A stretch of 64,000 nt of DNA from Escherichia phage PhaxI. Below are positions 2,980-56,738 of the stretch, piece after piece (positions within the stretch are counted from its first letter, which is position 1; every line of letters starts with the position of its first letter). Both the position numbers and the translations under genes were made by a program. The DNA is taken from sequence record JN673056. One strand, written 5' to 3'. A model generated the notes under the pieces. The model searched no databases, had not been told where the DNA came from, and saw only the letters and a program-made list of their open reading frames with translations.

Positions 2980-2981
2980 TA

Positions 2982-4097
2982 TTATGCATCCAATGTGTTC
3001 AGGCGTTGTTGGGCAGCATTATAGAATTGTTCTGCTAATTTGCAAACATTTTCAGGGCGCTGGATATTATTGGCGGCGCGGATATCTTTCTTCAAGACTT
3101 CCACCGCATCAGTAGCCACCATCTCTTCAGTGACTTCTACCTTCTCGGAAGCAACAGTAATCGTCCGATCGATGAAGTTGTAATCGATGCATTTACAGCG
3201 CTTCAATGCGTCACAGAACTTTTCATAATGCTTGGCATTGTCACGGTTCTGTACAATCACCTTAACGATTTGCCCTTCAATACCCAAAACATTGTTTAAC
3301 CAATCGGGGTCGATCCAATTACCTTCAGTATCAGAAGACATTTGGGTGTAGTCGTATTCCACGAACCGGAACAACGTTTGTTGTTCGTTGTTGGGGATAA
3401 ACAATTCCCCGCCATTCATGTCGTCTACATAGAATCCTCGGTTCGTCCCGTCTTTGTGGTCTTCCCAGGTAAGGTGATAAGGAGTCCCAATATACTGAAT
3501 GTTACCTTCCATCGAACGGGTATGGAAATGTCCGGTATCCACGCGCTCGAATTTCGAAAGGAGCGCCAAGTCGATCTGACCTTTATCACATACAGAGGAC
3601 TGGTACATTTTGAACCCTGCCAACTCCAGATGCGCAAAACAGTACTTGGCGTCTGTATCTTGTATCGCTTTAATGGACGCATCATAGTTCTCTTTGTTAA
3701 TCCACGGCAGTAGGAGGGTCTTGACACCTTCAATCATTACTTCAGTTGGTTCGCTGTAATAATGATAAACCTCCGGTGCCAATTCATTAAGATAAGAAGG
3801 CCAGTTAATACGATTGGACTCTTCTAACGTGATATCATGGTTGCCGACGATGCCATTCCATTTAATACCTGCTTTGCGCAGCGCTGGCGTCAATTCATCT
3901 TTCAACCAATCTTTATCGCGACCATACATGAATTTGCGAACATCAAACGTATCACCAAATTGCCACACTTCTTTAATATCGGCGTCAACCAATTCTGGAA
4001 TAAAATAATTGATGAGATAATTCTTTATGAATTCTCGAACGTAACGGGAACCATTACGGCTCCCGATATGTAAATCGCCAATTTTAGCAATCGCCAT
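2982..4097 (-). CDS. Mre11/SbcD-like nuclease (T4 gp47-like)
   Basis: Calcineurin-like phosphoesterase motifs GDLHIG, GNHD, DTGHFH; directly upstream of Rad50-like gene as in T4 47-46. Confidence 0.8.
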   Translation of the reverse strand: MAIAKIGDLHIGSRNGSRYVREFIKNYLINYFIPELVDADIKEVWQFGDTFDVRKFMYGRDKDWLKDELTPALRKAGIKWNGIVGNHDITLEESNRINWPSYLNELAPEVYHYYSEPTEVMIEGVKTLLLPWINKENYDASIKAIQDTDAKYCFAHLELAGFKMYQSSVCDKGQIDLALLSKFERVDTGHFHTRSMEGNIQYIGTPYHLTWEDHKDGTNRGFYVDDMNGGELFIPNNEQQTLFRFVEYDYTQMSSDTEGNWIDPDWLNNVLGIEGQIVKVIVQNRDNAKHYEKFCDALKRCKCIDYNFIDRTITVASEKVEVTEEMVATDAVEVLKKDIRAANNIQRPENVCKLAEQFYNAAQQRLNTLDA

Positions 4098-4875
4098 TAT
4101 TTTGTTGCTCCCGTTCTAATGCTCGTTTCTTTGCTTCTTCCCAATCTGGTTCCATAGAACATATTTCGTCTTCCAGATTGAATTGAGTAGAGCCGAAGTC
4201 ATAGTCTGAATTATCTTCGGCGTCGGCGGTAATGGTATTTTCACTCTTTGTGAGACATTGAAGTATACCGCGAGGAATTTTCTTATTCTTTTCCTCTTCT
4301 TTGATGGCGATTTGCTTTTGGCGTTCCTTTTCGCGCTGGGCTTCTTTCTTAGTTTCAAAATTTCCGATACGCTCACGAAAGTCCATTGTTATACCAGTGC
4401 TGTCTACGAATGTCTGTTGCTGGAAGTCTGGGTCATCTGATAATGCAGCGAAACCACCTGCTTCTTCAAATGAACGCAACTTGATATAATTGTGTTCTTC
4501 TTCACTGGTGAGTTTCTTGGCGAATGAACGATCGGCGCACATCGTTACCCAAGAGAAGAAATTGATTTTTCCTTTCTTGCCGATATGACTGACGTCAAAT
4601 GTATGGAGGTAACGAAGGATGTTGACAACGGCCTCACTGACCATGTCTTCGCGGTATGGATAATCACGATAGTTGTAGCGCATACTCATGTTCTTAATAA
4701 TCATCTGAACATTCATGGCCACATAATTGGGGATTCTTGGTAGGGGTGTTCCTTCGGCCAAAGCCTTTTTGCGAGCCGGAATCCAATCTCTCAATATTCC
4801 AACAACACGGTCATTATCTTCGTCTGTGAAATATTTGGTGACGTTATCACCCCTGTCTACAAAATTCATACCCAT
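4084..4875 (-). CDS. late-transcription sigma factor (T4 gp55-like), with acidic C-terminal extension
   Basis: Positionally equivalent to T4 gene 55 next to gp47; segments LRDW, MNVQMIIKNMSMRYNYRDY, NFFSWVTMCADRSFAKKL align by eye with remembered gp55 (IIDW, [39 protein letters not shown]); start moved from TTG 4890 to ATG 4875 preceded by GAGGAT. Confidence 0.55.
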   Translation of the reverse strand: MGMNFVDRGDNVTKYFTDEDNDRVVGILRDWIPARKKALAEGTPLPRIPNYVAMNVQMIIKNMSMRYNYRDYPYREDMVSEAVVNILRYLHTFDVSHIGKKGKINFFSWVTMCADRSFAKKLTSEEEHNYIKLRSFEEAGGFAALSDDPDFQQQTFVDSTGITMDFRERIGNFETKKEAQREKERQKQIAIKEEEKNKKIPRGILQCLTKSENTITADAEDNSDYDFGSTQFNLEDEICSMEPDWEEAKKRALEREQQNNGDC

Positions 4876-4886
4876 CGTGATAATCC

Positions 4887-5414
4887 TCAAATACCAATGA
4901 ATTCATTGAAAGAACCAACGACTTTCTTGACCGAGAAACGGTTATTTTCAAGAACCATTGAACTATCTTCTTTGGCTCTAACGCTCCACTGATCCGCAAT
5001 TTCGTTGCCCATCGTTCCTGCATGACCTTTCACCCATTTTAATTCAAGTTCACAAATTGAACAAACTTTGTCATAATAATCGAACAACTCGAGCAGAAGT
5101 TCTGTGTTCTTAGGCGGCATTCCTTCATATTCCCATTTACGACGCCACTCCAAAACGCTATTGATAACATATTGGCTGTCGGATATAATGCGGGCTGGGG
5201 GAATGCAGCGTTCACCGCAATTAGAGAATTTCCATAGGATCTTCATCGCGTTTATAACCCCGAGTAACTCAGCTATATTGTTCGTTGACGGCGGGGGTAA
5301 ATACCCATAAAACACTTTCCATTGCTCTCCAGTGATTGGACTGATGGCAAATGCCCAACCAGCGGCTCGTGTCTTCTGAGGGGATGATGCCCCGTCAGTG
5401 TATATTTCAATCAT
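4887..5414 (-). CDS. rnhA: ribonuclease HI (bacterial rnhA type)
   Basis: RNase H motifs IYTDGA, NNIAEL, SDSQYV, WVKGHAG..NE.AD match E. coli RNase HI catalytic residues; start set to ATG 5412-5414 (track begins at TTG 5429). Confidence 0.75.
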   Translation of the reverse strand: MIEIYTDGASSPQKTRAAGWAFAISPITGEQWKVFYGYLPPPSTNNIAELLGVINAMKILWKFSNCGERCIPPARIISDSQYVINSVLEWRRKWEYEGMPPKNTELLLELFDYYDKVCSICELELKWVKGHAGTMGNEIADQWSVRAKEDSSMVLENNRFSVKKVVGSFNEFIGI

Positions 5415-5456
5415 GTATAAGTATCCCAAACTGGTTTTATCGATGAGGAACGAATC

Positions 5457-6224
5457 ATGTCAGAACGCGCATATCGTTTCAGTCTGACCGCCCCAGAAAT
5501 TGAGCGTTTGCTCTTGTCTATAAATGATTCCATACAAAAGCTGGACATCATTTATGACTACACGGCGGGTGGGACTGAAGGTCAAGTCGCAGCTGCGTCA
5601 GCTGTCAAAAACATGTGGCTAAAACTTAATGAGATGGTCACAGGTGAAGGTCTTAAAGACGCAATCAATGCAGCTAACGACAGCAACGTATTCACCGATT
5701 ATTATAAGTCTATTTTAGATCGCGAAACTTGGAAATTTATTGGTTCTCCGGCAGATTTATTAGCAAGGGACGATATAGACACTTCCAATTTTGAAGGCGG
5801 TGAAGTAATCCTCCTACAAAAGAACGCTTCGGGCAACCCAGAATTCCAATACTGGAAAAGAACTCCTGTGGCAGGAGGTGATCCAATATTTGGTTGGGAA
5901 TCTGTTTATGAAGGAAACTCCAACGACTCTTCTATTGATATTCCGGTTGTTGGGACCAGCATACTGAAGACAATCCCAAAAGCATTGTTTCATATGGTCG
6001 AATTCCGAGTACACGCTCGAGAGTCTACCCTCGGTCATTGGCAGGACACTGATGGCAAAATCGGTTATCGTGGTGAAGATCTGATTTATAGCCTGTATAA
6101 TCATGTTCAAACCAAACCGATCGCAAATATATCTTTCAGCCAAGATGTGGACAATATGATTATCACGATAACGACACTTGAACCAAATATCAAGTGCCAT
6201 TTATCGTTTATTGCGGGTTATTAA
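5457..6224 (+). CDS. hypothetical protein (255 aa), plus-strand
   Basis: ATG 5457 preceded by GAGGAA; convergent with flanking minus-strand genes; no motif recognised. Confidence 0.45.
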   Translation: MSERAYRFSLTAPEIERLLLSINDSIQKLDIIYDYTAGGTEGQVAAASAVKNMWLKLNEMVTGEGLKDAINAANDSNVFTDYYKSILDRETWKFIGSPADLLARDDIDTSNFEGGEVILLQKNASGNPEFQYWKRTPVAGGDPIFGWESVYEGNSNDSSIDIPVVGTSILKTIPKALFHMVEFRVHARESTLGHWQDTDGKIGYRGEDLIYSLYNHVQTKPIANISFSQDVDNMIITITTLEPNIKCHLSFIAGY

Positions 6225-7927
6225 ACCTCAAACACTGCATCGGTGAACCAGGTTGGGAAGAATTCTGGGTTGCGCATCATAAGAGATTCAAAGGATGAAT
6301 CAATGATGTATGTCGCAGCCCAGTCATCAACACCCCTGACCGAACGCCCACACATTTGAACAATGCGCAGTACTGCATTGCGGAAATATGCCGACGGATC
6401 CACTGAATTGATATGTGCTATCAGTGGATCGCCCAGATAATCATAAGGGACTTTGATCAGTATTTGGAAACGGCTGTAATCCCCTTTGAAATCATAACCT
6501 TCTTCCATAGCCGGACTGGCAATGACGCATGGGGACTTTGTTCTAAAAGCATTTTCCATAATATCCATCAACGCCTTTCGGGTACGCGGAACATGGATAA
6601 AATTCTGATATTTGCTGAATTTTTGTATTGCCAAGGCGCGATCATAACTCACTGTATGGATAATGCCGGACTGACCTGGGTGGAACGCGATTATTTCATC
6701 AATATATTCCGTCAACCTTTTCATTTCATAGTCACCCATATTGTTAGTCATCTTCACTATGGGCATATAGTTGACTTTTCTGTTTTCAATCGGGATAGGG
6801 TTGCCGATCTGAATGGAATGATAATCCCCCTGTCGAATACCCAATGAACGAGCATACAGATCGTGCTGACATATGAACGTGGATATCGCTTTTCGGAATA
6901 ACCCGAATTCGCTTACATCAGAAGGCATTACAGGTTTAAACCGGATAAAATCCTCCCCCTTTTCTTGCACAATAAATGTACTTGCTTGGGTTTGTGACAT
7001 AATACCGCAATAATCACTCAAGTTATGCAAGACATCTATAATGTCGGCGAGTTTCATCACTTGGCTTTCACTCAAGCGATCATCTTCGACCAATTCTTCA
7101 AGAACTTCCAACAAATTTTCTACTTTGAGATGGAGGGCTTCAAACATTGAATGCAGTTCACCAGACAAAGAATATAACTTGCCCAGGACATAGTCCTTGG
7201 TGCGTTCTACGATATCACCAATGGTAGAGACGATCTCCTTGCCCTCAGGGATAGAACGCAGCCCCTCCACGGCCTTTGTATTGTATTCCATGATCGTGTG
7301 CTCTAGGAGCGTAGAGGGCATTTTATGGCACTCGTCAAGGATCAGCATATCGGAACGGTTTTCGGGCTTCATGCAGATGGTTGTACACATTTCGATCATC
7401 ATGGCAGCATTAGTACAACGCAATGATGAAATATCCGTCCACAAATTACGCGCCTGTACATAAGGACAGCGGCGTTTGCTACAATGCCCGTCACGGCATG
7501 CTATACGGCATTGGACAGCATTGTAATACACATCTGGATGTACGTGGCAACGATAGTTCTTCTTGCCTTTTAGGATGTCTATCGCCACCGCCTTTTCAGC
7601 AGCATACTGATCTTGCAGACCTTTGGTCGGGGTGCTGATAGAAGTGCGAAATTGCCCATAAGGATCAGCCTGTAAAACTAGATGGCGAATCACTTTATGA
7701 ATGGTAGTGCCAATCAAAGATTTACCGACACCTGTCGGAGCTTCAATGATGACATGTTTAACCTTTTTGTTGATAAGCGCATCTATGGCTTCGACGATGC
7801 ATTCCATCTGGCCTGGGTTCGCTTTGTCATATGGGAATTCATCTTTGGTAAGGCGTTGTATTTCTTCCACAGGAACCTTACGGCCTATGGCGTCAATCGC
7901 CTTTCGGTGTTGATTAAATGCTGTCAC
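6221..7927 (-). CDS. SF2 DNA helicase, Rad3/XPD/DinG-like with Fe-S cysteine cluster
   Basis: Walker A APTGVGKS, DECH box (ILDECHK), cysteine-rich insert CHVHPDVYYNAVQCRIACRDGHCSKRRC typical of 4Fe-4S helicases; GTG start with strong SD AAAGGAGG. Confidence 0.65.
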   Translation of the reverse strand: MTAFNQHRKAIDAIGRKVPVEEIQRLTKDEFPYDKANPGQMECIVEAIDALINKKVKHVIIEAPTGVGKSLIGTTIHKVIRHLVLQADPYGQFRTSISTPTKGLQDQYAAEKAVAIDILKGKKNYRCHVHPDVYYNAVQCRIACRDGHCSKRRCPYVQARNLWTDISSLRCTNAAMMIEMCTTICMKPENRSDMLILDECHKMPSTLLEHTIMEYNTKAVEGLRSIPEGKEIVSTIGDIVERTKDYVLGKLYSLSGELHSMFEALHLKVENLLEVLEELVEDDRLSESQVMKLADIIDVLHNLSDYCGIMSQTQASTFIVQEKGEDFIRFKPVMPSDVSEFGLFRKAISTFICQHDLYARSLGIRQGDYHSIQIGNPIPIENRKVNYMPIVKMTNNMGDYEMKRLTEYIDEIIAFHPGQSGIIHTVSYDRALAIQKFSKYQNFIHVPRTRKALMDIMENAFRTKSPCVIASPAMEEGYDFKGDYSRFQILIKVPYDYLGDPLIAHINSVDPSAYFRNAVLRIVQMCGRSVRGVDDWAATYIIDSSFESLMMRNPEFFPTWFTDAVFEV

Positions 7928-7976
7928 GTTGTTCCTCCTTTGGATTCTGTTATAGTTTACCCGAATCCCAACAACG

Positions 7977-8010
7977 AAAAAGCCGAGGCATTAACCTCGG
8001 CTTCTCCTTT
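7977..8010. terminator. bidirectional rho-independent terminator hairpin (GCCGAGG-CATTAA-CCTCGGC)
   Basis: 7-bp GC-rich stem flanked by A-run upstream and T-rich run downstream on plus strand; lies between HU gene end and helicase gene start. Confidence 0.5.
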
Positions 8011-8062
8011 TAGCCTTGCGCCGCTGCACTGCAGACATGCGCTGGGCCGACGCCTGGTGTGA

Positions 8063-8341
8063 TTACTGGCCGTTGGCAGCAGCTTTCAGACCTTCACCGA
8101 CTTTGAATTTAACTACATTTTTCGCTTCGATCTGGATCTGTTGTCCGTTCAGCGGGTTGCGGCCAGTGCGCGCTTCCTGATGTTTAACTTCGAACGCGCC
8201 GAAGCCTACGAATTGGACAGATTGGCCAGCCGCGACTGCAGTTTTCACGCCATTGATAAAAGATGCAACGATTTTCTCAGCTTCGCCTTTGGTCATACCC
8301 TGGGTTTGAGCGATGTGAGCGATAAAATCAGTACGGTTCAT
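8063..8341 (-). CDS. HU/IHF-family DNA-binding protein
   Basis: MNRTDFIAHIAQ..GMTKGEAEKIVASF..GFGAFEVKHQEARTGRNPLNGQQIQIEAKNVVKFKVG is a canonical HU fold sequence; start set to ATG 8339-8341 with GGAG SD (track start 8377 is upstream). Confidence 0.85.
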   Translation of the reverse strand: MNRTDFIAHIAQTQGMTKGEAEKIVASFINGVKTAVAAGQSVQFVGFGAFEVKHQEARTGRNPLNGQQIQIEAKNVVKFKVGEGLKAAANGQ

Positions 8342-8428
8342 TCGGATTACTCCAGTTGGTTGTTTACGATGTTTCACTACAAGAGGACTACAGCTTACCT
8401 AACAAATATTATTGAATAAAGCGTTTAT

Positions 8429-9217
8429 TTACCGGGCATTTAGCATGTTACTTGAGCCTGAACCATCAACAGTCAGAGTACATTTCCCGGTGTTTGGGCA
8501 AGATTGCAACACCATGTTATATTCGTGGTGTAAATATTCAGGTGTCAGAGATGTCGTCAGTTTCTGATTCGCCCTGGCTTCTTGATCTGGAATTTCAACG
8601 TTCTTTCTTGCTGTATCCAAACGTTTGTCGGCCAGGACATTATCGCGGATAGATTGCTCAATCGAAGGATCTGTCAGCGCCTTTTTCACCAACACACGTG
8701 TGATTGTGAACATGCCAGGCGCAGCAGTTTCCAATTGCTGCTGGGTGCGTTCCTTGATCATCTTTTCTAACTCAGCCCGTTGGGTGTGAATTGTCATAGA
8801 ATCCAAAGAGGAAACGGCGTCCATCGTTGAGGATGCTGCGGCGGTTTTAACCAGGTTGAATCCCACCGCTATCGTGCCGTCACCGAGTTCAGCGCTCTGA
8901 CCTGCAAATTTGGTATGGAACCAAGGAACCTTCGCGACGTTCGGTGTGTAATAAACGTCCACATCCAGATCTTCCAAGGTCAGGTTGTCTTTGGCCTTTG
9001 GCGTCATTTTGGTCAGACTCACAACGGCTTCTTTGGTCGTGTAAACATCCACGCTTGAAACAAAGCTGGTGTAGATCCCCGCTGTTACAGGGTTCATGTC
9101 TACTTCACCCCATTGGGTGTGAACGCCGACATTACCTTCATCGATAACGCCACCACAACCAGAAAGTAGACTTGCAGCCAGAACCATAATTGCACCAAAC
9201 ACCAATTTCTTGAACAT
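8429..9217 (-). CDS. SPFH (band-7/stomatin-prohibitin-like) domain lipoprotein
   Basis: Signal peptide plus lipobox MMFKKLVFGAIMVLAASLLSGC; SPFH-like N-terminal motif VIDEGNVGVHTQWGEV and later AKDNLTLEDLDVDVYYTP resembling the TKDN..v.vd..v.yr block; start overlaps stop of upstream membrane protein gene. Confidence 0.5.
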   Translation of the reverse strand: MFKKLVFGAIMVLAASLLSGCGGVIDEGNVGVHTQWGEVDMNPVTAGIYTSFVSSVDVYTTKEAVVSLTKMTPKAKDNLTLEDLDVDVYYTPNVAKVPWFHTKFAGQSAELGDGTIAVGFNLVKTAAASSTMDAVSSLDSMTIHTQRAELEKMIKERTQQQLETAAPGMFTITRVLVKKALTDPSIEQSIRDNVLADKRLDTARKNVEIPDQEARANQKLTTSLTPEYLHHEYNMVLQSCPNTGKCTLTVDGSGSSNMLNAR

Positions 9218-9435
9218 CAATGTACCCCTTCAAAAATGTAGATATATGCACCCAATGTGAGTGCGGTTATTGTAACCGAAGAAATCAGCAGCAGGAAAGT
9301 TACCCTCACCCGTTTACGCCAACGTTTACTTCGGTAGATTTTAGTCTCTTTCAAGTATTTGAAAAAGAAAAATAAAATGAATGTTGAAATTACGAATATG
9401 AACAGATAACGGATTAACCCGATCATATTTCCCAC
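9217..9435 (-). CDS. small two-helix membrane protein (72 aa)
   Basis: Two hydrophobic segments (LIRYLFIFVISTFILFFFF and FLLLISSVTITALTLGAYIYIF) separated by basic loop KRWRKRVR; translationally coupled to the SPFH lipoprotein gene. Confidence 0.45.
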   Translation of the reverse strand: MGNMIGLIRYLFIFVISTFILFFFFKYLKETKIYRSKRWRKRVRVTFLLLISSVTITALTLGAYIYIFEGVH

Positions 9436-9743
9436 CCTGTGCTACGCAGATGATCAAAATAATCGTTGAGTTCGTCAATATCTTCGATATCAACCCAACG
9501 ATCATCCAGACCCATATCATTTAGATCTTCTTCAGTCAGATCATGTTGGTATATTTGAACGCCGGAAGCATTACAATAATCCGGCTTGATGTTATTGTTA
9601 TACTGAAACAGGTCGTAATCAGCCAGAGTATTCTTCAGGCGCTGCGCTTCTTCAAATGTTGGAACCTCAACATGAAAAGCGATCCCAGGAACCTGGGGAA
9701 TATGCCAAACGCGAAATTTAAGTTCAAACGGTTTATTCGACAT
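9423..9743 (-). CDS. hypothetical acidic protein (106 aa)
   Basis: ORF in operon context; acidic C-terminus DDRWVDIEDIDELNDYFD. Confidence 0.4.
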   Translation of the reverse strand: MSNKPFELKFRVWHIPQVPGIAFHVEVPTFEEAQRLKNTLADYDLFQYNNNIKPDYCNASGVQIYQHDLTEEDLNDMGLDDRWVDIEDIDELNDYFDHLRSTGWEI

Positions 9744-10062
9744 GGGGTTCTCCCTGAGACAGTATGGTTTTCATCTGTTCACGCGTGATAATTGTTTCAA
9801 CAAGATTCTCGTCAATCATCATTTCGTTTAACAGTTCACAACCCAGCACGTGTGGTCGCGCCATATACGGCATCGTGTTGAGTTTTTCTTCTATGTCAAG
9901 AACGCGCTTGACAGTCAGACCCATAGAAGAAAAGGGAACAGGATAAAAGAATGAAATGATCTGATTATCCATCCCGTTTGAAAATCTTACCAACAATACA
10001 TCACACCATACGCCGGACATATTACACCTCCAGACGGTTACAATGAGAAAGCGCGTTATCAA
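9733..10062 (-). CDS. hypothetical protein
   Basis: ORF in operon context; true start may be an internal Met. Confidence 0.35.
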   Translation of the reverse strand: MITRFLIVTVWRCNMSGVWCDVLLVRFSNGMDNQIISFFYPVPFSSMGLTVKRVLDIEEKLNTMPYMARPHVLGCELLNEMMIDENLVETIITREQMKTILSQGEPHVE

Positions 10063-10690
10063 TCTGTTCCCGAGACAGATATTCCCAACGGGTTGCGAGA
10101 AATACGCGTCTAACAGCAGCAGTTGAGCACAGCGCGATTACGAGTTTCCTCTCCATCATGATACCGTTCATATGTGGTGAACGGGCTGTCCATACAACAT
10201 ACTGACCTAAATCGTCGTTGGCAGTCAGGCTAATGCGAAACTGATTACACAATTTGTCGATTAACGCATAATCATATGTGAACGTCCCTTCAGTTTTCCA
10301 GCTTGATTTCTTCACCTGAAGAGCTTCACCACGAGTTCTGAATTCTAACGTCACTCCATGAGTTTCATTGTCGAAATGAACAACTCTCTGAGTTTCATTT
10401 TTCAGAGTCCGGTTCATATTATGTACGAAGAAACGGGCGTCGATCTCCCTATTGCTCATGGAATTAAAATCGATCGGCCAAAAACGAGCGCGCATAATCG
10501 CGCCTTCTGGCAATACAATTAGTCCATTTTCACGGGAGACATAGCAAAGACGTTTAACTACAGGGTCAGGATGTTCCACACAATAAACGGAAATTCCAGT
10601 GGGAAGGATAGCGTGGGCGACAACACCAGATCTTTCAAAATATAAATTACCCTGGTCAGCCCCGATGATAATACGGCTCTTGTTGTTCAT
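10022..10690 (-). CDS. hypothetical protein (222 aa)
   Basis: Long ORF in minus-strand operon, no motif recognised. Confidence 0.45.
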   Translation of the reverse strand: MNNKSRIIIGADQGNLYFERSGVVAHAILPTGISVYCVEHPDPVVKRLCYVSRENGLIVLPEGAIMRARFWPIDFNSMSNREIDARFFVHNMNRTLKNETQRVVHFDNETHGVTLEFRTRGEALQVKKSSWKTEGTFTYDYALIDKLCNQFRISLTANDDLGQYVVWTARSPHMNGIMMERKLVIALCSTAAVRRVFLATRWEYLSREQIDNALSHCNRLEV

Positions 10691-10747
10691 AATATAGATC
10701 TCTCAAATAAAAGGCGGTTTAATAATAACCGCCCTAATGTTATTGAA

Positions 10748-11542
10748 TTATTTTATATCACCGACATACATGTTCAAACTTTCATCCCATTCTAAACGAA
10801 CACGAATAGTGCCAGAATCGTTTGGGAAAGACAATTTGTCGCACATATGACGATTTGCATATGTTCCGCTCTTATTAACAGGATAATCTTTACCTTCACC
10901 GATTGCGAATCGTTTGAAGTTCCGACTCACCATCATATTGATGTTAGGCCACTGCAATTGTTCCCGTAGGGTTTTGCACAATATAATCTTCCCATTAGAC
11001 CGGAAAGACACGAATAAATCATTTGGTGAAGAAAATCGCCTTTCTTGCGGGCATAATTGCCTGATTGAAATAAACTCAGATTCTTCTTTATTCTCAACTG
11101 GAGACTTCACGGGTTCTTCTTTTCGTTTTTCTGCATATTGCTCAACAGCCTTTTGGCTGATAGGCGGCAGATCAATAGAAGGGGAGATGACTGCGGGCTT
11201 AACGACTGGTGAAGTACGAGCAGCAACAAGTTTTTCCTGAGCTTCCAGAATTCTCTCTTGGCGAGATTTTGGTCGAGTATCAACCTTGGAGCTGAAATCA
11301 CAAACCGTAACCCAATCACCCTGATCATTGCGCTTGGCAACCAGAGTCAGTTTATAGATGATGCCCTGCAGCTTGCTTTCGCGCATAGTGTCTGCGAACC
11401 AGAAAGCACAACCCTGCTCGAACTTTTCAGCGAAGATGACGCGTCCGTCTTCGTGAATCAGAATGACCTTTGCTTTGTTGGGCGCGAACATCTTATTCTT
11501 TTCAATGATCGATTCGGCGATCTTTTTGGTAATAATCATCAC
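10748..11542 (-). CDS. hypothetical protein (264 aa)
   Basis: Long ORF; no motif recognised. Confidence 0.45.
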   Translation of the reverse strand: MMIITKKIAESIIEKNKMFAPNKAKVILIHEDGRVIFAEKFEQGCAFWFADTMRESKLQGIIYKLTLVAKRNDQGDWVTVCDFSSKVDTRPKSRQERILEAQEKLVAARTSPVVKPAVISPSIDLPPISQKAVEQYAEKRKEEPVKSPVENKEESEFISIRQLCPQERRFSSPNDLFVSFRSNGKIILCKTLREQLQWPNINMMVSRNFKRFAIGEGKDYPVNKSGTYANRHMCDKLSFPNDSGTIRVRLEWDESLNMYVGDIK

Positions 11543-11589
11543 GAAGTATTTCCTTTCAGTTCAATGGAAGTTAAATTTTAACCTGAAAA

Positions 11590-11910
11590 TTATCTTTGAT
11601 TTCCAACGAAATTAGTCGCTATTTCCCGACACATAGTCAGATCTTTGATCGTCTGTTTGCTATTGTCGGCAGCGGACTCCATCATTGACAAATCCAAAGC
11701 ATTCTCTATTTGATCCACGCTGTAGAGATCAAGGCGTTTCAACTCACCTTCATAATCTGATAAAAGGATGGATGTATCTTTATCATCAGGGTGAAATTGT
11801 TGATAAGTAGACAACCAGGCCGCACACATATTCAATTTGCTAGCCGGAGTTGCCACAACTTGGAATGATGCCAACATAGAAAAGAATAACAAGAATATTA
11901 TGTTTCTCAT
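11590..11910 (-). CDS. small secreted protein (signal peptide)
   Basis: N-terminus MRNIIFLLFFSMLASFQVVA looks like a Sec signal peptide. Confidence 0.4.
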   Translation of the reverse strand: MRNIIFLLFFSMLASFQVVATPASKLNMCAAWLSTYQQFHPDDKDTSILLSDYEGELKRLDLYSVDQIENALDLSMMESAADNSKQTIKDLTMCREIATNFVGNQR

Positions 11911-12596
11911 CTTTCGTTCTCCTTCATCATATTATCACAGTCAATTCTTGTTTGCTTGAGTTCACGGGCAAGCCTGGGATCATCAAGATTGACAGACAAA
12001 TTAGTGGAAAGATCTTTCAAACCATTCTGAACACGGTCTTCATAATAATGATCATTTTCCACCAGCCATGCTCTCAGGCCAAGGGCGCGAGTCCGCCATT
12101 CCTTTTTCAAACGTCGATCTGATTCTTGATCAGCACTGTATTCAAATACTCGGATACATTGGTTGCCATCATTGATGAGATCCAGCTGACGTCGGCCAAC
12201 CTGCACACCTTTTTGTAATGCTGGAGAAGGAAGAGAACGGCACTGTCTTACGGTCATTCGTCCTTGTGTGCCCATACGACCAGTCATGATGAGATCGCCA
12301 GCCTCCATGCCTCCTCGATTAAATTCTTTGTCGTTCATATATCCTTTCAGGTTGAACGCGCCTTGCTTATATCGATTAAACTCAATACCAGCATTTACAA
12401 CGGCATCTGTGACATTACCTGTGGCCCAGAGTTCAGCAAAGTTCTCTATGGAACCAGTTTTGTCTATAGCGACGGCTTGGGAGAACCCAGCACAGTAGGA
12501 AAGATCAGACCACAGTTTTTCACCTGTGGAGTTCAGCTTGGCGGTGGCAGGAAGTGCCAGACCAGCCAGCACAACCCCGATGATTAAACGTTTCAT
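11907..12596 (-). CDS. secreted/periplasmic protein (229 aa)
   Basis: Start set to ATG 12594-12596 with SD AAGGAG giving MKRLIIGVVLAGLALPATA signal peptide; track ORF extends further upstream to 12761. Confidence 0.45.
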   Translation of the reverse strand: MKRLIIGVVLAGLALPATAKLNSTGEKLWSDLSYCAGFSQAVAIDKTGSIENFAELWATGNVTDAVVNAGIEFNRYKQGAFNLKGYMNDKEFNRGGMEAGDLIMTGRMGTQGRMTVRQCRSLPSPALQKGVQVGRRQLDLINDGNQCIRVFEYSADQESDRRLKKEWRTRALGLRAWLVENDHYYEDRVQNGLKDLSTNLSVNLDDPRLARELKQTRIDCDNMMKENER

Positions 12597-12675
12597 GGTG
12601 ATTCTCCTTATTTCATTGGATAAAATGATAGGGCTGTCACCATGTTGAGTAAAGGGTTTCAATAAACTATCGTAT

Positions 12676-13125
12676 TCAGAAACGGGTATCGCTGACCGTT
12701 CTGTATCGCACACCCTGAAACTGTTTAGCGAGTTTAACAAATTCCATCGCTGGCAAATCAACTTTGTAGACCTTCATGCGCTGTTTGCCGTCCATGTTCA
12801 ACGCAGCGACAAATCGGTGAGACCCGTCAACAACGTAATTGTCAGAAGACACCCAAACTCGACCCATGGGCTTCTTATTTCTGATCTGCTTCATAATCTT
12901 CCAGACCTTCATTTTATTGATTTCGTTCTGGGTAAGACGAAGCATTTTGATGGGCACTTGCGCAGCATCTATGGACACGCCGTTGTCTTCAAGATATTTG
13001 TGAAAATCTTCTTGTTTGTCGGCATCGATTTGCGGCATAGAAGAACGAGAAAGCCCGAGGTTCCCAACAGGAATCCTCAGGCCATTTATGATATTCATCC
13101 AGTCAATAAAGGATGTAAGGAACAT
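12676..13125 (-). CDS. ParB-like nuclease domain protein
   Basis: Motif ..KPMGRVWVSSDNYVVDGSHRFVAALNMDG.. matches the ParB/Srx N-terminal domain signature (vIDGhHR). Confidence 0.5.
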   Translation of the reverse strand: MFLTSFIDWMNIINGLRIPVGNLGLSRSSMPQIDADKQEDFHKYLEDNGVSIDAAQVPIKMLRLTQNEINKMKVWKIMKQIRNKKPMGRVWVSSDNYVVDGSHRFVAALNMDGKQRMKVYKVDLPAMEFVKLAKQFQGVRYRTVSDTRF

Positions 13126-13162
13126 GACACACCTCGGGATATAGGGTTATCCCTTAGTTAGT

Positions 13163-13441
13163 TCATTCGGACTTAAACAGCAATTCGCGAACAGAAGTCC
13201 CAACGATATTTTGGGCGTTCAACAAACGAGTTAAATCATCCATGTCGTATGCTGAATTGGTGACATGGCCCAAGATAATCGCCAACATTCCCTCCAGCGC
13301 TCTCCGATTGTTATTCTCTTCAATGTCAAACTTAATTTCAACAAATCGAGATAGCATTCTGGATTGAGCATGAGTTTCGTTGGTTTTGCTCTGTATAATA
13401 TCTTTGATTTCCGAACGAGCAATACTTCTTTGATCTGTCAT
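13163..13441 (-). CDS. hypothetical protein (92 aa) starting MTDQ
   Basis: Preceded by conserved hairpin-RBS cassette (see repeat 13425-13510); AAGGAA SD. Confidence 0.45.
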   Translation of the reverse strand: MTDQRSIARSEIKDIIQSKTNETHAQSRMLSRFVEIKFDIEENNNRRALEGMLAIILGHVTNSAYDMDDLTRLLNAQNIVGTSVRELLFKSE

Positions 13442-13510
13442 GATATAGTTCCTTCATTTCAAATGGGCGGGGCAAAGATACCCCGCCGTGGGTTTATAGG
13501 GTAACAAGTG
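13425..13510 (-). repeat. terminator-RBS-start cassette, copy A (hairpin GGCGGGG-N8-CCCCGCC then CATTTGAAATGAAGGAA..ATGACAGATCAA)
   Basis: About 75 percent identical over about 70 bp to 13985-14070, including the first four codons (MTDQ) of the downstream gene. Confidence 0.6.
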
Positions 13511-14000
13511 ATACGGTAAAAACCATCGTCCCATCTGTTGTCATTTTTCTTGAAACTGGGAAGACGCGAGGCTGACAGAATATCCATTCTTTCTCCATGG
13601 ACGCCAAGTCCAGCATATCCATTTCTGATTCATCGCCTTTGTTCACAAATTTTTCTAGAGAACCAAAGACATTAAGCCCCTCTGGGAGTCCGTTTCGATG
13701 TTTATAACAAATGCGGGCAACAGCTTTGGTTCCATACGATTTAGAAAATTGTTTGGCCACATGCTTCAGTTCGCTGAAACTAAGACAAGAATCCCATGTC
13801 TGAAACATGTCTCCTCGTTCAAACATCATCTCCAAACGCGCAACGTCCTCTTTAGGCAACCCGCGATAAAGTGTGGTCATCTGCGGTTCGCGTAATTCTT
13901 GCACCAGACCACGGATGGCAGGGGAAACAGTGCCAGGGCGCATGATGTGGGACTTATCATGGACGAGGTAAAATAAATCTTGAATTTGTTGATCGGTCAT
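13494..14000 (-). CDS. hypothetical protein (168 aa) starting MTDQ
   Basis: Preceded by copy B of the hairpin-RBS cassette; no motif recognised. Confidence 0.45.
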   Translation of the reverse strand: MTDQQIQDLFYLVHDKSHIMRPGTVSPAIRGLVQELREPQMTTLYRGLPKEDVARLEMMFERGDMFQTWDSCLSFSELKHVAKQFSKSYGTKAVARICYKHRNGLPEGLNVFGSLEKFVNKGDESEMDMLDLASMEKEWIFCQPRVFPVSRKMTTDGTMVFTVSLVTL

Positions 14001-14070: not shown

Positions 14071-14350
14071 GCTTCAGAAGAGCGAAGAGGATCGCGGCCT
14101 TGGCTTTCACCTTTCCGACGACGCCTGTTTCGACATCGACTTCTTCGGCAACCCAATCTTTTCCCTTCTTGCTGATGATAACATCGCGGCGCTGGGCATA
14201 TACTTCTTTGGTCGCATACACACGACGGAACCCTTTAGCGCGGAGCAAGCCCCAATTACGATCATCTCCACTGAGTTCTACCATTTGTCTCATGATATAT
14301 CTACCTTTCACCTGTGAACCCATCGTTCGCCAGTTATTGAATATACGCAT
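14060..14350 (-). CDS. hypothetical protein
   Basis: ORF in operon; likely shorter than track ORF (internal Met MRQMVELSG). Confidence 0.35.
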   Translation of the reverse strand: MRIFNNWRTMGSQVKGRYIMRQMVELSGDDRNWGLLRAKGFRRVYATKEVYAQRRDVIISKKGKDWVAEEVDVETGVVGKVKAKAAILFALLKHIS

Positions 14351-14412
14351 TTGCCTTATAGAAGTAAACCCCTAAAAGTAAAAATCCCCCAACGTTTGTT
14401 GGGGATCTTCAG

Positions 14413-14745
14413 TTACTTGCGCAGGGCAACCACGTATTCGGCAAGTTCACCCATGGTCGGGTCGTCGCCTTTACCGCCCAGCCAGCCATCAGAGATCTCG
14501 ACATTGAACTCTTCTTCTAGTTCCATGACGATTTCGATGGCATCAAGATCGTCGCCGCCGAGGTCTTTCTTGGTGCGGAGGCCAGCCAGTTTATCCAGGG
14601 CGTCATTCATAATCACTTCCGCGTCGACGATGCCTTTGATGCTGCTCTTGTCTTCGTCACTGACTTCCAGGTTCAGATTGTCAGTGGCGTACTGAGCCAG
14701 GTGACGCATTACTTCAACATAAGTTGGTTTGTTTGACATAAGCAT
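14413..14745 (-). CDS. acyl-carrier-protein-like protein lacking the phosphopantetheine-attachment serine
   Basis: KDLGGDDLDAIEIVMELEEEFNVEISD aligns with E. coli ACP [27 protein letters not shown], but codons GAC GAT (DD) replace the DS of the DSL motif; checked on the DNA. Confidence 0.6.
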   Translation of the reverse strand: MLMSNKPTYVEVMRHLAQYATDNLNLEVSDEDKSSIKGIVDAEVIMNDALDKLAGLRTKKDLGGDDLDAIEIVMELEEEFNVEISDGWLGGKGDDPTMGELAEYVVALRK

Positions 14746-14782: not shown

Positions 14783-17035
14783 TTAGATTTTGACTTCTTT
14801 TTCAGCCAGTTCGGCAGTGACGGTGTATTTCACCCCATCAACGTCCACATCCATAGTGGATTCTTCCAAATCCAGGTCGGTAAACCAACCATGGCCTGCA
14901 ACAATCCCATAAACTACCTTGGACAGCGTTTTGTTCAGAGATCGAACTTCGTTGATAGCTGCTTTTGCTGCATCACCAATCCAACTTTCGATCAGCTTTT
15001 TCTGAGTCTCTTCCGGTACGCTGGTGATCATCGGCGATTTAACAAACGCATTGTATTCGGCCAGGGCATTAGCGATCAGCTGATCAGCGACATTCAGTTT
15101 TTTACCGTCCGTCTGTTTTTTGATAACAGACGCGATGCTCGGCAGTGAAGATGCGCCTTTGATTTTCACATTCAATTCACGACTCATATAGACATCGGTT
15201 GATTCTACAGAAGAAGTCTTCGGTGAAAATCCATAGTCGCGAATGCCGTTTGCTGACAGGAAATCAGCCGCTTCTTTGCCATATTTTGAAGCCAGACCCG
15301 TAGCGTTGCCTTTTCCAACCAGTTCATCACGGTAGAATTTCAGAACTTTCTGTTTTGCCTTCAATGCTTCACGGCGCACATTGTCTGCAAAGAATTCAGC
15401 AGCACTGATATTCTTTGTCATGGCGCGGTTAACCATTGGGACACTTTCCAGATTTACAATGAAGACTTCCGGCCCACCAAACACATGAACACCCATGGCA
15501 GTCAAATCCTGTGCCACCTTAGCCCGAACAATCGGAGAATCTGCAGTGATAGGCATTGTTTTCAGGTTGATGATACCATCCTTGACAATGGTGTAATTGC
15601 GATAACGCCATGTATCCAGCTCTTCAGGAAGTTCATATTTCTTCTGTACAAACTCGGGCACAACAACCGTCCCGTGTTGAACTGTCTGCACACTGATGTT
15701 AGGACGTTCTGAATTATAGACCAAATTGCTGATCGGGACAATCCCTTTATCATCTGCTGGATTGAATTCCGGCGTCCAATCTTCGTGCTCGGCCAGTTTG
15801 AGCGCCAGGGCTTTACGCTCTTCTTTAGAAGTCGCATTCGCAATCTCTTCGGCCAACTTGTCTTCGGTGTCGTCAACTTTTTGTATAGTACCGCGCCCAA
15901 TGCTCTTGTAAGAGAATAGCGGATGCTTGGTGACGATAGAGACATCTGCTTCAGCCAAATACGTCAGAACATCAACAATGGTGGTGGCGTCTTCAGCCGG
16001 AACCATATTATAATCGATGCCATCAACTCCTCGCAGAGATTCGTCTACGATAGCCTGAGTCAGATCGACTTTGATGTTGGAGTAATCCTGCTTGGTGAAA
16101 CAGTTGCTGTATTGTTTGATGAAGCGGACGTCACCCGTTTTCTTCAGCGCAGCCCAAACCAAATCTGCGTCCATGGTATACACGCCGTAAAATGCCAGCA
16201 CGTATGCCGCTTGGATGTCTGCCAGATTATCCAGCTGGTCGATCATGTTGGGGTTTACAACCCACAGCTGAGAAACGCTTTCAGGGATGCTGACGTGGCC
16301 AATAGGGTGCTCTTCATCAGGATGCACAGCTAAAACAGTCGCCACGCCATTTTCAACATAAATGGCATGGGTGTAAACCAGGGGAACATCGACCACCACT
16401 TTCGGTGAAGAAGTTTTTAGCACGTTTTCCAATTCGGTCTGATATTCATTCTGGCCTTCGGCGAATACGTGGGTCGCACCAGAACGTTCTGCCATTAGCG
16501 CCAGCAGTTCGCGATTACAATACCAACCGTATTCGATGAAGGTAATGTTATCAAACGCTTTGGGCAGTACTTCAGCGGCATCCAGGATTTCATTAGAGCG
16601 CCAGCAGTTGTCATATCCGTCGGTCATGAACGCCAGGTTATTGACATAACCAGGTTTGTTCAGGCTCATCGCGGTTTCAGCAGCCAACTTCAGAGGTTCT
16701 ACAAATCCCGTACAACCTGACGGTTGCAGGAAGCGGTCAATCAGTTTATTGATTTCACTGAGATCGGTCGCGCTATTGATCTGACGGCCAGCGAATACCG
16801 TACCGAAATCACCACGGGATGAAAAGTAAAGAATGCTGACGGTATCTTCTGGTTTAACCAGAGACGGGAGATTTTCCTTCAGATGCTTACGGACTTCTGG
16901 AAGTGAAAGATACATGGACCGGGAGATATCCACAACGATTACATGGTTAGACGGTGCGACGGTCGCAACCGCATTCTTAAATGTTAATGATTCAATCATC
17001 GTTATTACCTTCTTTGGTGGTTTGAGCGGCTTCAC
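14783..17035 (-). CDS. von Willebrand factor A (vWA) domain protein (750 aa)
   Basis: MIDAS motif DxSxS (VVVDISRSMY) in N-terminal domain followed by a long C-terminal region of unknown fold. Confidence 0.5.
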   Translation of the reverse strand: MKPLKPPKKVITMIESLTFKNAVATVAPSNHVIVVDISRSMYLSLPEVRKHLKENLPSLVKPEDTVSILYFSSRGDFGTVFAGRQINSATDLSEINKLIDRFLQPSGCTGFVEPLKLAAETAMSLNKPGYVNNLAFMTDGYDNCWRSNEILDAAEVLPKAFDNITFIEYGWYCNRELLALMAERSGATHVFAEGQNEYQTELENVLKTSSPKVVVDVPLVYTHAIYVENGVATVLAVHPDEEHPIGHVSIPESVSQLWVVNPNMIDQLDNLADIQAAYVLAFYGVYTMDADLVWAALKKTGDVRFIKQYSNCFTKQDYSNIKVDLTQAIVDESLRGVDGIDYNMVPAEDATTIVDVLTYLAEADVSIVTKHPLFSYKSIGRGTIQKVDDTEDKLAEEIANATSKEERKALALKLAEHEDWTPEFNPADDKGIVPISNLVYNSERPNISVQTVQHGTVVVPEFVQKKYELPEELDTWRYRNYTIVKDGIINLKTMPITADSPIVRAKVAQDLTAMGVHVFGGPEVFIVNLESVPMVNRAMTKNISAAEFFADNVRREALKAKQKVLKFYRDELVGKGNATGLASKYGKEAADFLSANGIRDYGFSPKTSSVESTDVYMSRELNVKIKGASSLPSIASVIKKQTDGKKLNVADQLIANALAEYNAFVKSPMITSVPEETQKKLIESWIGDAAKAAINEVRSLNKTLSKVVYGIVAGHGWFTDLDLEESTMDVDVDGVKYTVTAELAEKEVKI

Positions 17036-32056: not shown

Positions 32057-32524
32057 TTATAACAATCGTTTGGTTTTGGGTTTGCCCATGAGAGTGATAT
32101 TGACATTTATTCCCGCTTTCTTCATGCGCTTGATCATGTCTTGCGTCCCAGTAGACGAACCATCCCATAATGCAATTCCAAAGACCCTCAAGATCTTTTT
32201 GCTTTGCCACGATAGAGCATTGTCAGCATATCTTGGGTTGCGTTGATTCCCTGCGCTTTCCCATAATAATGTATGGTAATTCTTAGGAATTGCCATCGGG
32301 GTGATATGGACATAATTGATTTCACACCAATCACGGGATATCAGGTCGACACCCACCGCTTCGCCTTCTATAAAAGTTTCGATCTCGTGCGGATCTAACA
32401 GTTCATCCAGTTTGGTGAATATTTTGTCCCGTTCGGTTATAGAACGGGAACCCGTTATAAGAACGATATACTTCTTCATAGAACTCACAGCGCCCCAAGA
32501 TTGCTGATGACGTACAGGCTGCAT
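32057..32524 (-). CDS. DUF2493/SLOG-like Rossmann-fold protein
   Basis: IVLITGSRSITERDKIFTKLDELL..ETFIEGEAVGVDLISRDWC resembles the G-x-R ... G-A-x-G-x-D motifs of DUF2493-type phage proteins. Confidence 0.4.
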   Translation of the reverse strand: MQPVRHQQSWGAVSSMKKYIVLITGSRSITERDKIFTKLDELLDPHEIETFIEGEAVGVDLISRDWCEINYVHITPMAIPKNYHTLLWESAGNQRNPRYADNALSWQSKKILRVFGIALWDGSSTGTQDMIKRMKKAGINVNITLMGKPKTKRLL

Positions 32525-56543: not shown

Positions 56544-56738
56544 AGGTGCTTCAAGTACAGTTGCTGTAAATTTCCATTTTGTATCGGAATAAAATTCAGC
56601 AGGTGAAGTATCATCACTTTGTATGATTACCGCTTGTTTGCCAGATTCTCTTCTACGACACCAGCAATATTTTTCTGGGTTGGATCCCAGTTACTAGAGA
56701 CAAGCACCCCATCAAATTCTACTAATGATTCAAAAGGT

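Follow-up and report, generated by a model that had tools for sequence, protein, structure and literature searches.

GxxRxxA has equivalents in box II of ParB (GERRxRA), in Srx (GGCHR) and in SerK (DGHHR). The CTPase clamps ParB, Spo0J, Noc and KorB share the nucleotide-binding fold and this motif with gA, the 149-residue phage protein described here, but gA has no HTH, C-terminal dimerization domain, ParA-interaction motif or annotated parA neighbor. SerK (PDB 5X0B), SbnI and PF08857 (Atu1540, 1VK1) are ParB/Srx proteins of the DGHHR type, which gA matches only below threshold. SerK and SbnI contain a C-terminal domain that gA lacks, whereas gA carries at its N-terminus an R..MPQI motif of its own and a helix of 15 residues, and appears to be a phage virion protein. 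The ParB domains of polyvalent proteins are, like gA, phage-specific ParB/Srx domains found alone or within very large proteins, and they are likewise virion-associated and thought to act early after injection (PMC5512222). The DdrB-like ParB domain belongs to a different family from gA, which in this genome is not beside late structural genes. A 2025 survey now sees the ParB/Srx fold as a general NTP-binding module (PMC12704722).

For the two exported proteins described here, gB and gC, the closest systems by gene layout are the two-component spanins lambda Rz/Rz1 and T4 PseT.3/PseT.2. In both cases the genes adjoin and overlap, the products are envelope-targeted, and cysteines are conserved. 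Unlike these spanins, gB and gC have no conserved lipobox, convincing transmembrane anchor or predicted coiled coil, their genes are not part of a lysis cassette, and sister genera do without the helical half of gB. T4 Spackle is an inhibitor of the gp5 tail lysozyme, and PliC/MliC are lysozyme inhibitors with soluble and lipoprotein forms. We use these proteins as a working analogy for gB and gC, in which the shared features would be a Sec leader, small size, disulfide bonds and production in the infected cell, together with a lipid anchor that is optional within one family in the case of PliC/MliC and gC. No sequence similarity between these inhibitors and gB or gC was found, nor any PDB match.

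The three genes lie in the window, a 64,000-nucleotide stretch of Escherichia phage PhaxI (JN673056). The window shares ~99.9% identity with Escherichia phage FEC14 (Kuttervirus, Ackermannviridae) and 99.3% with CBA120. All three open reading frames are present where the earlier note had placed them, within 11590-13125, and are encoded on the minus strand, which that note had left unstated (Table 1). Homologues of gA, gB and gC occur in 269-416 phage records, the dN/dS values against Dickeya phage LIMEstone1 are low (0.06 for gA and 0.075 for gB), and the order gA-gB-gC is kept across five genera; therefore, these are real genes and not chance open reading frames. The mechanical open reading frame of gB reaches 12761, and its annotated and conserved start is the ATG at 12596, with AAGGAG upstream. 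The overlap of gB and gC is also found in rabagast, CBA120, Serratia phage Kevin and Erwinia phage phiEa2809, and it is conserved in five genera. Pfam and NCBIfam searches returned no family for any of the three proteins. The three-gene set is conserved, already catalogued and ordinary for a Kuttervirus (Vi01/CBA120-like phage), and nothing in the findings on gA, gB and gC would surprise a specialist.

Table 1 Features of the gA-gB-gC locus, in positions of the window.
Feature	Position	Strand	Description
Candidate early promoter	14340..14368	-	TTTACT-17-TATATT; heads a seven-gene minus-strand block including gA, gB and gC
gA	12676..13125	-	149-aa (17.3 kDa, pI 9.9) ParB/Srx-fold protein; virion-associated in orthologous phages
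DGxHR / GxxRxxA nucleotide-phosphate-binding motif	12802..12828	-	D100-G-S-H-R-F-V-A-A108 of gA
Weak sigma-70-like site	12625..12653	-	TTTACT-17-TATCAT; in the 79-bp gA-gB spacer; 9/12 matches
gB	12596..11907	-	229 aa, exported (predicted); mature ~210 aa, 23.9 kDa
gB signal peptide	12540..12596	-	residues 1-19, MKRLIIGVVLAGLALPATA; predicted cleavage ATA↓K
ATGA overlap of gB stop and gC start	11907..11910	-	4 bp; translational coupling
gC	11590..11910	-	106 aa, exported (predicted); mature ~86 aa, 9.7 kDa, pI 4.5
gC signal peptide	11851..11910	-	residues 1-20, MRNIIFLLFFSMLASFQVVA; predicted cleavage VVA↓TP
Intrinsic-terminator-like hairpin	10711..10735	-	9-bp stem and T-run; closes the block, past a 264-aa gene downstream of gC

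The three genes had been proposed to form one cluster. As a single functional unit this cluster does not stand, since Vibrio Ackermannviridae have gA without gB and gC, and we therefore treat gA and gB/gC as separate functions. They would be neighbors by chance in a Kuttervirus block that is probably transcribed early or in the middle of infection. The LIMEstone1 annotation has an 'early promoter' at the position equivalent to 14340..14368, and we infer that this site may be the early promoter of the gA-gB-gC block. Scans for promoters and terminators returned weak sites only, and sigma-70-like sites were not enriched relative to shuffled sequences. As such sites are no commoner than in shuffles, the one in the gA-gB spacer is only a candidate; between it and the ATG of gB is the ribosome-binding site AAGGAG. 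A late-promoter core, CTAAATA, was derived here and scanned as (C/A)TAAATA, and positions 1-26500 of the window contain zero copies, so none lies near gA. A literature search for a transcriptome paper on Ackermannviridae found none.

Structure prediction and fold search uphold the ParB/Srx fold that the earlier note had assigned to gA. The AlphaFold2 model has a pLDDT of 82 and a pTM of 0.76, and the best 40 Foldseek matches in the PDB are all ParB/Srx. In the BFVD, the best matches are viral ParB/Sulfiredoxin proteins, and the structural matches include a protein of 811 aa that carries the annotation PBSX XkdF-like. gA is a single basic domain that starts with the 15-residue helix. Its residues 98-113 (VVDGSHRFVAALNMDG) hold the DGxHR / GxxRxxA motif, GxxRxxA being G101-S-H-R104-F-V-A107 (GSHRFVA). 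D100, G101, S102, H103, R104 and A107 show no variation in 21 homologues. Across 165 family domains, D, G and H of the motif are conserved at 99% and R at 90%, and the broad alignment shows no substitution at Q66, G101 or H103. Motifs specific to the family are R..MPQI, LxxTQxE and SxDxYxxDGxHR.

A profile search with gA matched 4870 cluster representatives (E<=1e-3), some of ~150 aa and others with the domain inside proteins of 300-2359 aa, in which it can be fused to an AAA_33/zeta-toxin-like kinase or a cytidylyltransferase, among others. One Pseudomonas phage has a gA-type domain inside a 4899-aa open reading frame, and further homologues were found in PhiW-14, T4-like Aeromonas phages, and small Pseudomonas and Ralstonia phages. 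The domain that gA represents in free-standing form is built into giant multidomain virion proteins in other phages. gA is among the simplest members of a very large phage ParB/Srx family (at least 4800 clusters) that has no curated Pfam model. PF02195 (ParBc) is not matched by gA, which has no Pfam match at E<=1, nor by any of 33 diverse relatives. PF08857 (ParBc_2) is matched by 12 of these relatives, none of which reaches the gathering score (best E 1e-3), and not by gA itself. The gA family profile reaches SerK (5x0j) with an E value of 0.023, also below threshold. The nearest proteins by sequence are DGHHR-type kinases (SerK) and ParBc_2, all at sub-threshold scores.

Three other connections of gA were considered and rejected. 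A link to thymidine hypermodification was prompted by the PhiW-14 homologue; the distribution of the gA family, with its Aeromonas, Pseudomonas and Ralstonia phages, appears not to track the chemistry. Assignment to the DdrB-like ParB domain of Iyer et al. found no support, with an hhalign probability of 0.1% for P1 DdrB and a score of -0.9 bits with a broadened HMM; two of the 33 relatives match PF18763 (DdrB-like ParB) weakly (E 0.012). The phage ParB that activates 5mYOX (PMC13229309) was set aside, because its C-terminal dimerization domain is missing from gA and the FEC14 records examined contain no dioxygenase annotation. In FEC14, parA and HTH annotations are absent from the 26 kb around gA.

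Virion proteomics of related phages suggests that gA is packaged. The gA orthologue of LIMEstone1 was detected by virion mass spectrometry with 5 peptides and 35.6% coverage, and a structural counterpart was reported in ViI (PMC3296691). In CsCl-purified virions of Sajous1, gp192 gave 11 spectra, and we confirmed that gp192 is the gA orthologue. Packaging, detected through orthologues in two phages, is one part of the overall reading given below. No capsid-targeting signal was identified in gA. If packaged, gA would be delivered with the DNA or be active at the start of infection, and it may act as an NTP-binding or NTP-hydrolyzing enzyme or switch. Alternatively, gA may not be a virion component and may instead be an abundant basic intracellular enzyme, such as a SerK/SbnI-type kinase, that co-purifies with virions. 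Packaged proteins do not usually lack a late-promoter motif, and its absence here gives this explanation some room; gA is surrounded by genes of the early/middle type, both virion proteomes also contain non-structural proteins (ligase, PhoH and SSB), and gA resembles SerK and ParBc_2, at sub-threshold scores. We consider co-purification unlikely, because the orthologues were detected in two independent studies and two genera with peptide numbers above those of contaminant-type proteins, the ViI counterpart was reported as structural, and gA-type domains are embedded in giant proteins elsewhere, with the PBSX XkdF-like match pointing the same way. Another explanation, raised by the earlier note, is that gA is a ParB-like DNase that nicks or degrades host or competitor DNA, or an anti-restriction factor. 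The fold, the high pI and virion delivery, which would fit an early-acting nuclease, are compatible with it, and Iyer et al. 2017 considered that phage ParB domains might act as DNases or as NTPases (PMC5512222). The same authors favor NTP sensing or degradation above DNase activity (PMC5512222), the fold is now treated as an NTP-binding module (PMC12704722), the PF02195 'nuclease' model is not matched, a relation to the P1 DdrB-type domain is undetectable, and the sub-threshold nearest sequences have a kinase-type DGHHR motif. In addition, a nuclease packed beside the DNA of the phage would require a mechanism of self-protection. The nuclease function is thus unsupported and in our view improbable; for gA, 'ParB-like nuclease' names a fold and not a function.

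Sec-type signal peptides had also been proposed for gB and gC, and our analysis agrees. The calls are rule-based (a positively charged n-region, a hydrophobic core 7-17 residues long, and a small residue at each of -3 and -1), and the evolutionary pattern is consistent with them. gB begins with MKR, a 14-residue core and ATA↓K; alanine at -1 and -3 is conserved in 16 of 16 homologues, and KD19 hydropathy exceeds 1.6 at the N-terminus only. gC begins with MR, a 17-residue core and VVA↓T; A20 at -1 is invariant among homologues, and the residue at -3 is small. The mean pairwise identity of gC is 30% in the leader versus 76% in the mature part, and the length of the leader is also very variable.

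The mature part of gB consists of an N-domain (residues ~20-135), which contains C35 and C119, and a C-terminal extension (residues ~140-229), which is helical and contains C147 and C220; all four cysteines are invariant. In Serratia phage Kevin, gB has the N-domain alone, matched with an hhalign probability of 97% (E 7e-11), and so does gB of Erwinia phage phiEa2809; the helical half is missing in Miltonvirus and Nezavisimistyvirus. In gC, C29 and C94 are invariant. Signal peptidase I would cut both leaders and release soluble periplasmic proteins, which disulfides, two predicted in gB and one in gC, would stabilize. Both proteins are missing from the Sajous1 virion protein list, and they would be made within the infected cell. 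In PHROGs, gB and gC fall into separate orphan families; gB matches phrog_4260 and phrog_22078, neither of which has an annotated function there. PDB profile searches with gB and gC gave chance matches only (E>0.7), and the AlphaFold2 model of gB, from a 16-sequence alignment, has a pLDDT of 37.

In the databases gB is labelled 'i-spanin', and gC is labelled 'Rz-like spanin' in PHROGs (phrog_3843) and RefSeq. These labels have spread to hundreds of Ackermannviridae records from one class-project call. They originate from a single doubtful entry for phage Marshall in a 2018 spanin census, on which the curators themselves left the flags 'Singleton', 'Too long?' and 'taking his word!' (PMC6139136 supplements). 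The CPT later reported no identifiable spanin in phage May, which has a gB of 86.8% identity. As a two-component spanin, gB would be the inner-membrane i-spanin and gC the outer-membrane lipoprotein o-spanin, and together they would span the periplasm and fuse the membranes in the final stage of lysis. The gene order and the 4-bp overlap resemble 'separated' spanin pairs, phrog_3843 carries the label, the Marshall orthologues are in the census, and Marshall gC has a LIAG↓C lipobox (PMC6139136). A search of the leader ends for the o-spanin pattern [LVI][ASTVI][GAS]C finds a lipobox-type motif in 7 of 40 gC clusters; the motif is missing in the other 33 and in the gC of the window, and the cysteine at the lipobox site is replaced by serine between close relatives. 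The core of gB, of only 14 residues followed by a conserved AxA, points by our rules to a cleaved leader and not to a transmembrane anchor. For the Marshall proteins, the census itself gives the 'i-spanin' 35% helix with 0 coiled coils and the 'o-spanin' an atypical 56% helix (PMC6139136 supplements), and two genera dispense with the helical half of gB. There is no lysis cassette: in FEC14 the endolysin (55983-56777) is ~21 kb from the pair (77438-78444). T4-like phages too have scattered lysis genes, so this distance is not decisive. No other spanin has been recognized in these phages, which favors the spanin reading, and a whole-genome lipobox scan of FEC14 returned only an SPFH lipoprotein and one doubtful embedded open reading frame. 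The latter (60 aa, ISS↓C lipobox) was rejected as a spanin, as its host gene has no transmembrane domain and it is probably a chance occurrence. That no other spanin was found in FEC14 argues neither for nor against gB/gC. Because most gC orthologues lack the lipobox, we correct the spanin annotation: a spanin function of gB/gC is very unlikely, and that the label does not hold up is a further part of the overall reading. A role in setting lysis timing, as periplasmic antiholin-like or holin-partner proteins comparable to T4 RI, is quite unlikely as well. Both are predicted small secreted disulfide proteins produced during infection, FEC14 has rIIA and rIIB, and no holin has been identified in this phage family. 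Against such a role, neither protein resembles RI and they form separate orphan families, no holin gene was found nearby and no lysis gene in the gA-gB-gC block, and by our rules the leaders look like signal peptides that are stable and cleaved, and not like SAR domains. Profile searches found no homology of gB or gC to T4 Sp, RI or solved structures. As neither a holin nor a spanin is known from these phages, no rival candidate argues against a lysis role of the pair.

Taken together, we read gA as a virion-carried ParB/Srx NTP-module protein and gB/gC as a coupled periplasmic pair that is not a spanin, with a probability of about 0.55. For the pair we favor a role in envelope protection or exclusion; gB and gC may act together as periplasmic binders or inhibitors, by which the envelope of the infected cell would be protected or conditioned. 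Superinfecting phage might be excluded, or attack on the wall from outside might be blocked. This idea draws on topology, cysteines and the analogy with Spackle and PliC/MliC. Exclusion or anti-defense by exported proteins, as the earlier note had suggested, is plausible in the same sense. A lipid anchor in gC is confined to one, Marshall-like sublineage, and its gain there fits a binder that is indifferent to its tether and not a spanin, in which the anchor is essential. A further possibility, doubtful in our estimation, is that gB/gC are an unrecognized periplasmic two-protein module and that gA founds a group of virion-delivered ParB/Srx enzymes with a new NTP-dependent activity; gB/gC would then be a new superinfection-exclusion or envelope-protection system, or the missing non-canonical step of outer-membrane disruption. 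With the corrected annotation, outer-membrane breach by these phages, several of which are candidates for therapy or biocontrol, loses its annotated spanin. gB-gC is also a small, tractable pair for studying secretion by lytic phages into the host periplasm.

The distribution of the genes is not that of variable accessory genes, a possibility that had been raised for them. Many Kutterviruses share a gA of 100% identity, and the gene is found throughout Ackermannviridae and outside the family, and gB and gC are fixed in the genera that infect Enterobacterales. The pair is restricted to Ackermannviridae of Enterobacterales, and a scan of IMG/VR with degenerate gB motifs returned Ackermannviridae only, so there is no outside context from which a function could be borrowed. 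A variable slot is found at 13494-14000, the next-but-one gene.

For the locus (window positions 11400-13300), identity to Escherichia phage FEC14 is 99.9% and to CBA120 99.3%; 274 phage records match it, nearly all from the Ackermannviridae (Kuttervirus, Taipeivirus, Agtrevirus, and Limestonevirus). In FEC14, it lies within 26 kb of minus-strand genes that are hypothetical or serve replication and recombination. The three open reading frames of the earlier note, encoding a ParB/sulfiredoxin-like (ParB/Srx) protein (gA) and two predicted exported proteins (gB and gC), are real, lie at the positions that note gave, all on the minus strand, and contain every peptide string it quoted. An ATGA overlap joins gB and gC, and the order gA-gB-gC is kept in five genera. 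The dN/dS values against LIMEstone1 are 0.06 for gA and 0.075 for gB, indicating strong purifying selection on both. We note that CBA120 has ~290 bp of additional DNA between gA and gB, with an annotated orf136 of 53 aa (positions 5198-5568 of the CBA120 stretch L002), compared with a spacer of only 79 bp in the window (12597-12675). The analysis adds a confirmed fold for gA, its placement outside curated ParB families, and a link to virion proteomes, and for gB-gC the modular anatomy, the distribution, and a documented case against the spanin annotation, which is useful curation and unsurprising.

Genes of the locus and neighboring genes mentioned in the text (window positions)
Feature	Position	Strand	Length	Remark
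gA	13125..12676	(-)	149 aa	
gB	12596..11907	(-)	229 aa	from conserved ATG; AAGGAG site upstream of that ATG
gC	11910..11590	(-)	106 aa	
SPFH/band-7 protein	8429-9217	(-)		lipobox LLSG|C
ORF directly upstream of SPFH gene	9217-9435	(-)	72 aa	two hydrophobic segments
P22 gp17 homologue	9423-9743	(-)	106 aa	annotated 'superinfection exclusion'
Alt-like ADP-ribosyltransferase part	13494-14000	(-)	168 aa	variable slot
Acyl carrier protein	14413-14745	(-)		
vWA-domain protein	14783-17035	(-)	750 aa	five genes upstream of gA

gA has no match in Pfam or NCBIfam; in PHROGs it falls in phrog_2859 (aligned to profile positions 316-467 of 740), with an additional weak ParB match. An AF2 model built from 21 homologues has a pLDDT of 82. 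The best 40 Foldseek matches of this model in the PDB are all ParB/Srx members, and its BFVD matches are viral 'ParB/Sulfiredoxin domain-containing' proteins. The motif picked out in the earlier note, D100-G-S-H-R104-F-V-A107, is nearly invariant and corresponds to the fold's GxxRxxA phosphate-binding element. The ParB/Srx fold suggested for this protein is borne out by the structural matches. The family is very large: at E<=1e-3, a full profile search gave 4870 cluster representatives, which range from ~150-aa members to domains within much longer proteins (at most 2359 aa), with fusion partners including a zeta-toxin/AAA_33-like kinase and a cytidylyltransferase; gA is most likely a free-standing version of the module seen in giant multidomain phage proteins. 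Motifs common across the family are R..MPQI, LxxTQxE, and SxDxYxLDGHHRW. Sequence links to curated families all stay sub-threshold (ParBc_2 in 12/33 members, ddrB-ParB in 2/33, and SerK at E 0.023), and P1 DdrB was not detected from the family. Therefore, gA has a ParB/Srx fold and belongs to an uncurated phage family of the DGHHR type. A gA-like domain is also found in Pseudomonas phage vB_PaeM_USP_25 (62.5 kb), within a single annotated 14.7-kb ORF of 4899 aa (positions 2631-10333 and beyond of its stretch L012), and Ralstonia phages Eline and Gervaise gave gA-like tblastn matches.

Record HE600015 annotates the LIMEstone1 orthologue of gA (73878-74327) as a 'confirmed structural protein', and an unknown structural protein of 17.31 kDa was listed for the LIMEstone1 virion with 5 peptides and 35.6% coverage (PMC3296691), against a calculated mass of 17.3 kDa for gA of the window. 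The gA orthologue of Sajous1, gp192, gave 11 spectra in CsCl-purified virions; its 450-nt gene immediately precedes the orthologues of gB and gC (gp193 and gp194), which the main text of the Sajous1 paper, virion table included, does not mention. A caveat on gA as a packaged protein comes from promoters. CTAAATA occurs within the 80 bp preceding 8 of 32 FEC14 structural genes, a 37-fold enrichment, and is probably the late-promoter core of this phage family. The pattern (C/A)TAAATA has 17 sites at 26527-61708, mostly minus-strand and in the structural module, and neither form occurs within 1-26500, the part that contains gA. That gA is a metabolic enzyme co-purifying with virions is unlikely. 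The label 'ParB-like nuclease' was not sustained, as 'nuclease' is a historical name of the fold and PF02195 matched neither gA nor any of 33 family members; a DNase is an equally improbable reading. Iyer et al. favored NTP sensing or degradation for phage ParB domains (PMC5512222), and a 2025 survey reports that the ParB/Srx fold binds CTP, ATP, or GTP (PMC12704722). Beyond its fold and the virion presence of its orthologues, gA is most likely a packaged basic enzyme or switch that binds or hydrolyses NTP, and it would act during DNA entry or shortly afterwards. The vWA-domain protein, whose gene adjoins that of the acyl carrier protein, is virion-associated in LIMEstone1 (6 peptides), and 1 spectrum of it was recorded in Sajous1.

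At the N-terminus, both gB and gC have a basic n-region and then a short hydrophobic core (14 residues in gB and 17 in gC), followed by a conserved small-x-Ala site (ATA|K and VVA|TP, respectively), and no further hydrophobic segments were seen in either protein. The gC leader is very variable in length and sequence, with 30% mean identity against 76% for mature gC, which is the usual pattern of a cleaved signal peptide. These sequence features support the Sec-type signal peptides predicted earlier for both proteins. The invariant cysteines, four in gB and two in gC, would be as expected for oxidised periplasmic proteins. gB is modular: in two phages, Kevin of Serratia and phiEa2809 of Erwinia, it consists only of the N-domain with the cysteine pair, its gene again overlaps a gC orthologue by 4 bp, and all four proteins carry predicted leaders of signal-peptidase-I type. 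A Vibrio member of the Ackermannviridae has gA followed directly by the helicase gene, so gA and gB-gC are independent units. Searches of 5.8 billion proteins, INPHARED, and IMG/VR found no relatives of gB or gC beyond the Ackermannviridae of Enterobacterales. The earlier note had asked whether these genes are variable accessory genes; the variable slot is instead that of the nearby 168-aa gene. Its product aligns with the C-terminal ADP-ribosyltransferase portion of Alt-like proteins (phrog_832, positions 1270-1425 of the 1480-position profile, E 9e-16). Its place is taken in rabagast, Sajous1, and LIMEstone1 by a DenV-like pyrimidine-dimer glycosylase, which is unrelated to it (no BLASTP alignment).

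In many database records, gB is labeled 'i-spanin' and gC 'Rz-like spanin', 'o-spanin', or 'putative lipoprotein'. The labels originate from the phage Marshall entry of the 2018 spanin census, where the i-spanin has 0 coiled coils and 35% helix and the o-spanin an atypical 56% helix (PMC6139136). Marshall gC carries a lipobox (LIAG|C), but only 7/40 homologue clusters have a lipobox, all but one of the Marshall sublineage; a near-identical relative has Ser at the lipobox Cys position, and gC of the window has no lipobox. The endolysin gene lies ~21 kb from gB-gC in FEC14. On these grounds, we reject gB and gC as spanin family members and consider a spanin function very unlikely; the optional lipid anchor within the gC family suits a binder or inhibitor better. 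A role as a lysis-timing factor is quite doubtful too. We favor gB and gC as soluble periplasmic proteins that are translationally coupled and made in the infected cell, whose export topology is supported and which most likely would act jointly as envelope binders or inhibitors, possibly excluding superinfecting phages or protecting from external wall attack. The P22 gp17 homologue belongs to the same minus-strand gene run, and its sequence shows no signal peptide.

A genome-wide lipobox scan of FEC14, a genome without a known o-spanin, found no alternative spanin; apart from the SPFH lipoprotein, its one hit was a doubtful ORF embedded in another gene. This ORF (60 aa, FEC14 32239-32421 (-), stretch L006, outside the window) encodes a leader well suited to a lipoprotein, MLKALILFLSLVFTVSFISS|C, and lies partly over the 3' end of gp051, in a different frame; it is probably a chance occurrence, as gp051 lacks a transmembrane segment. 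The SPFH protein, with its canonical lipobox, is the only convincing lipoprotein that the scan found in the whole FEC14 genome. Together with the 72-aa ORF it resembles an SPFH/NfeD-type pair, and 3 spectra of it were recorded in the Sajous1 virion preparation.
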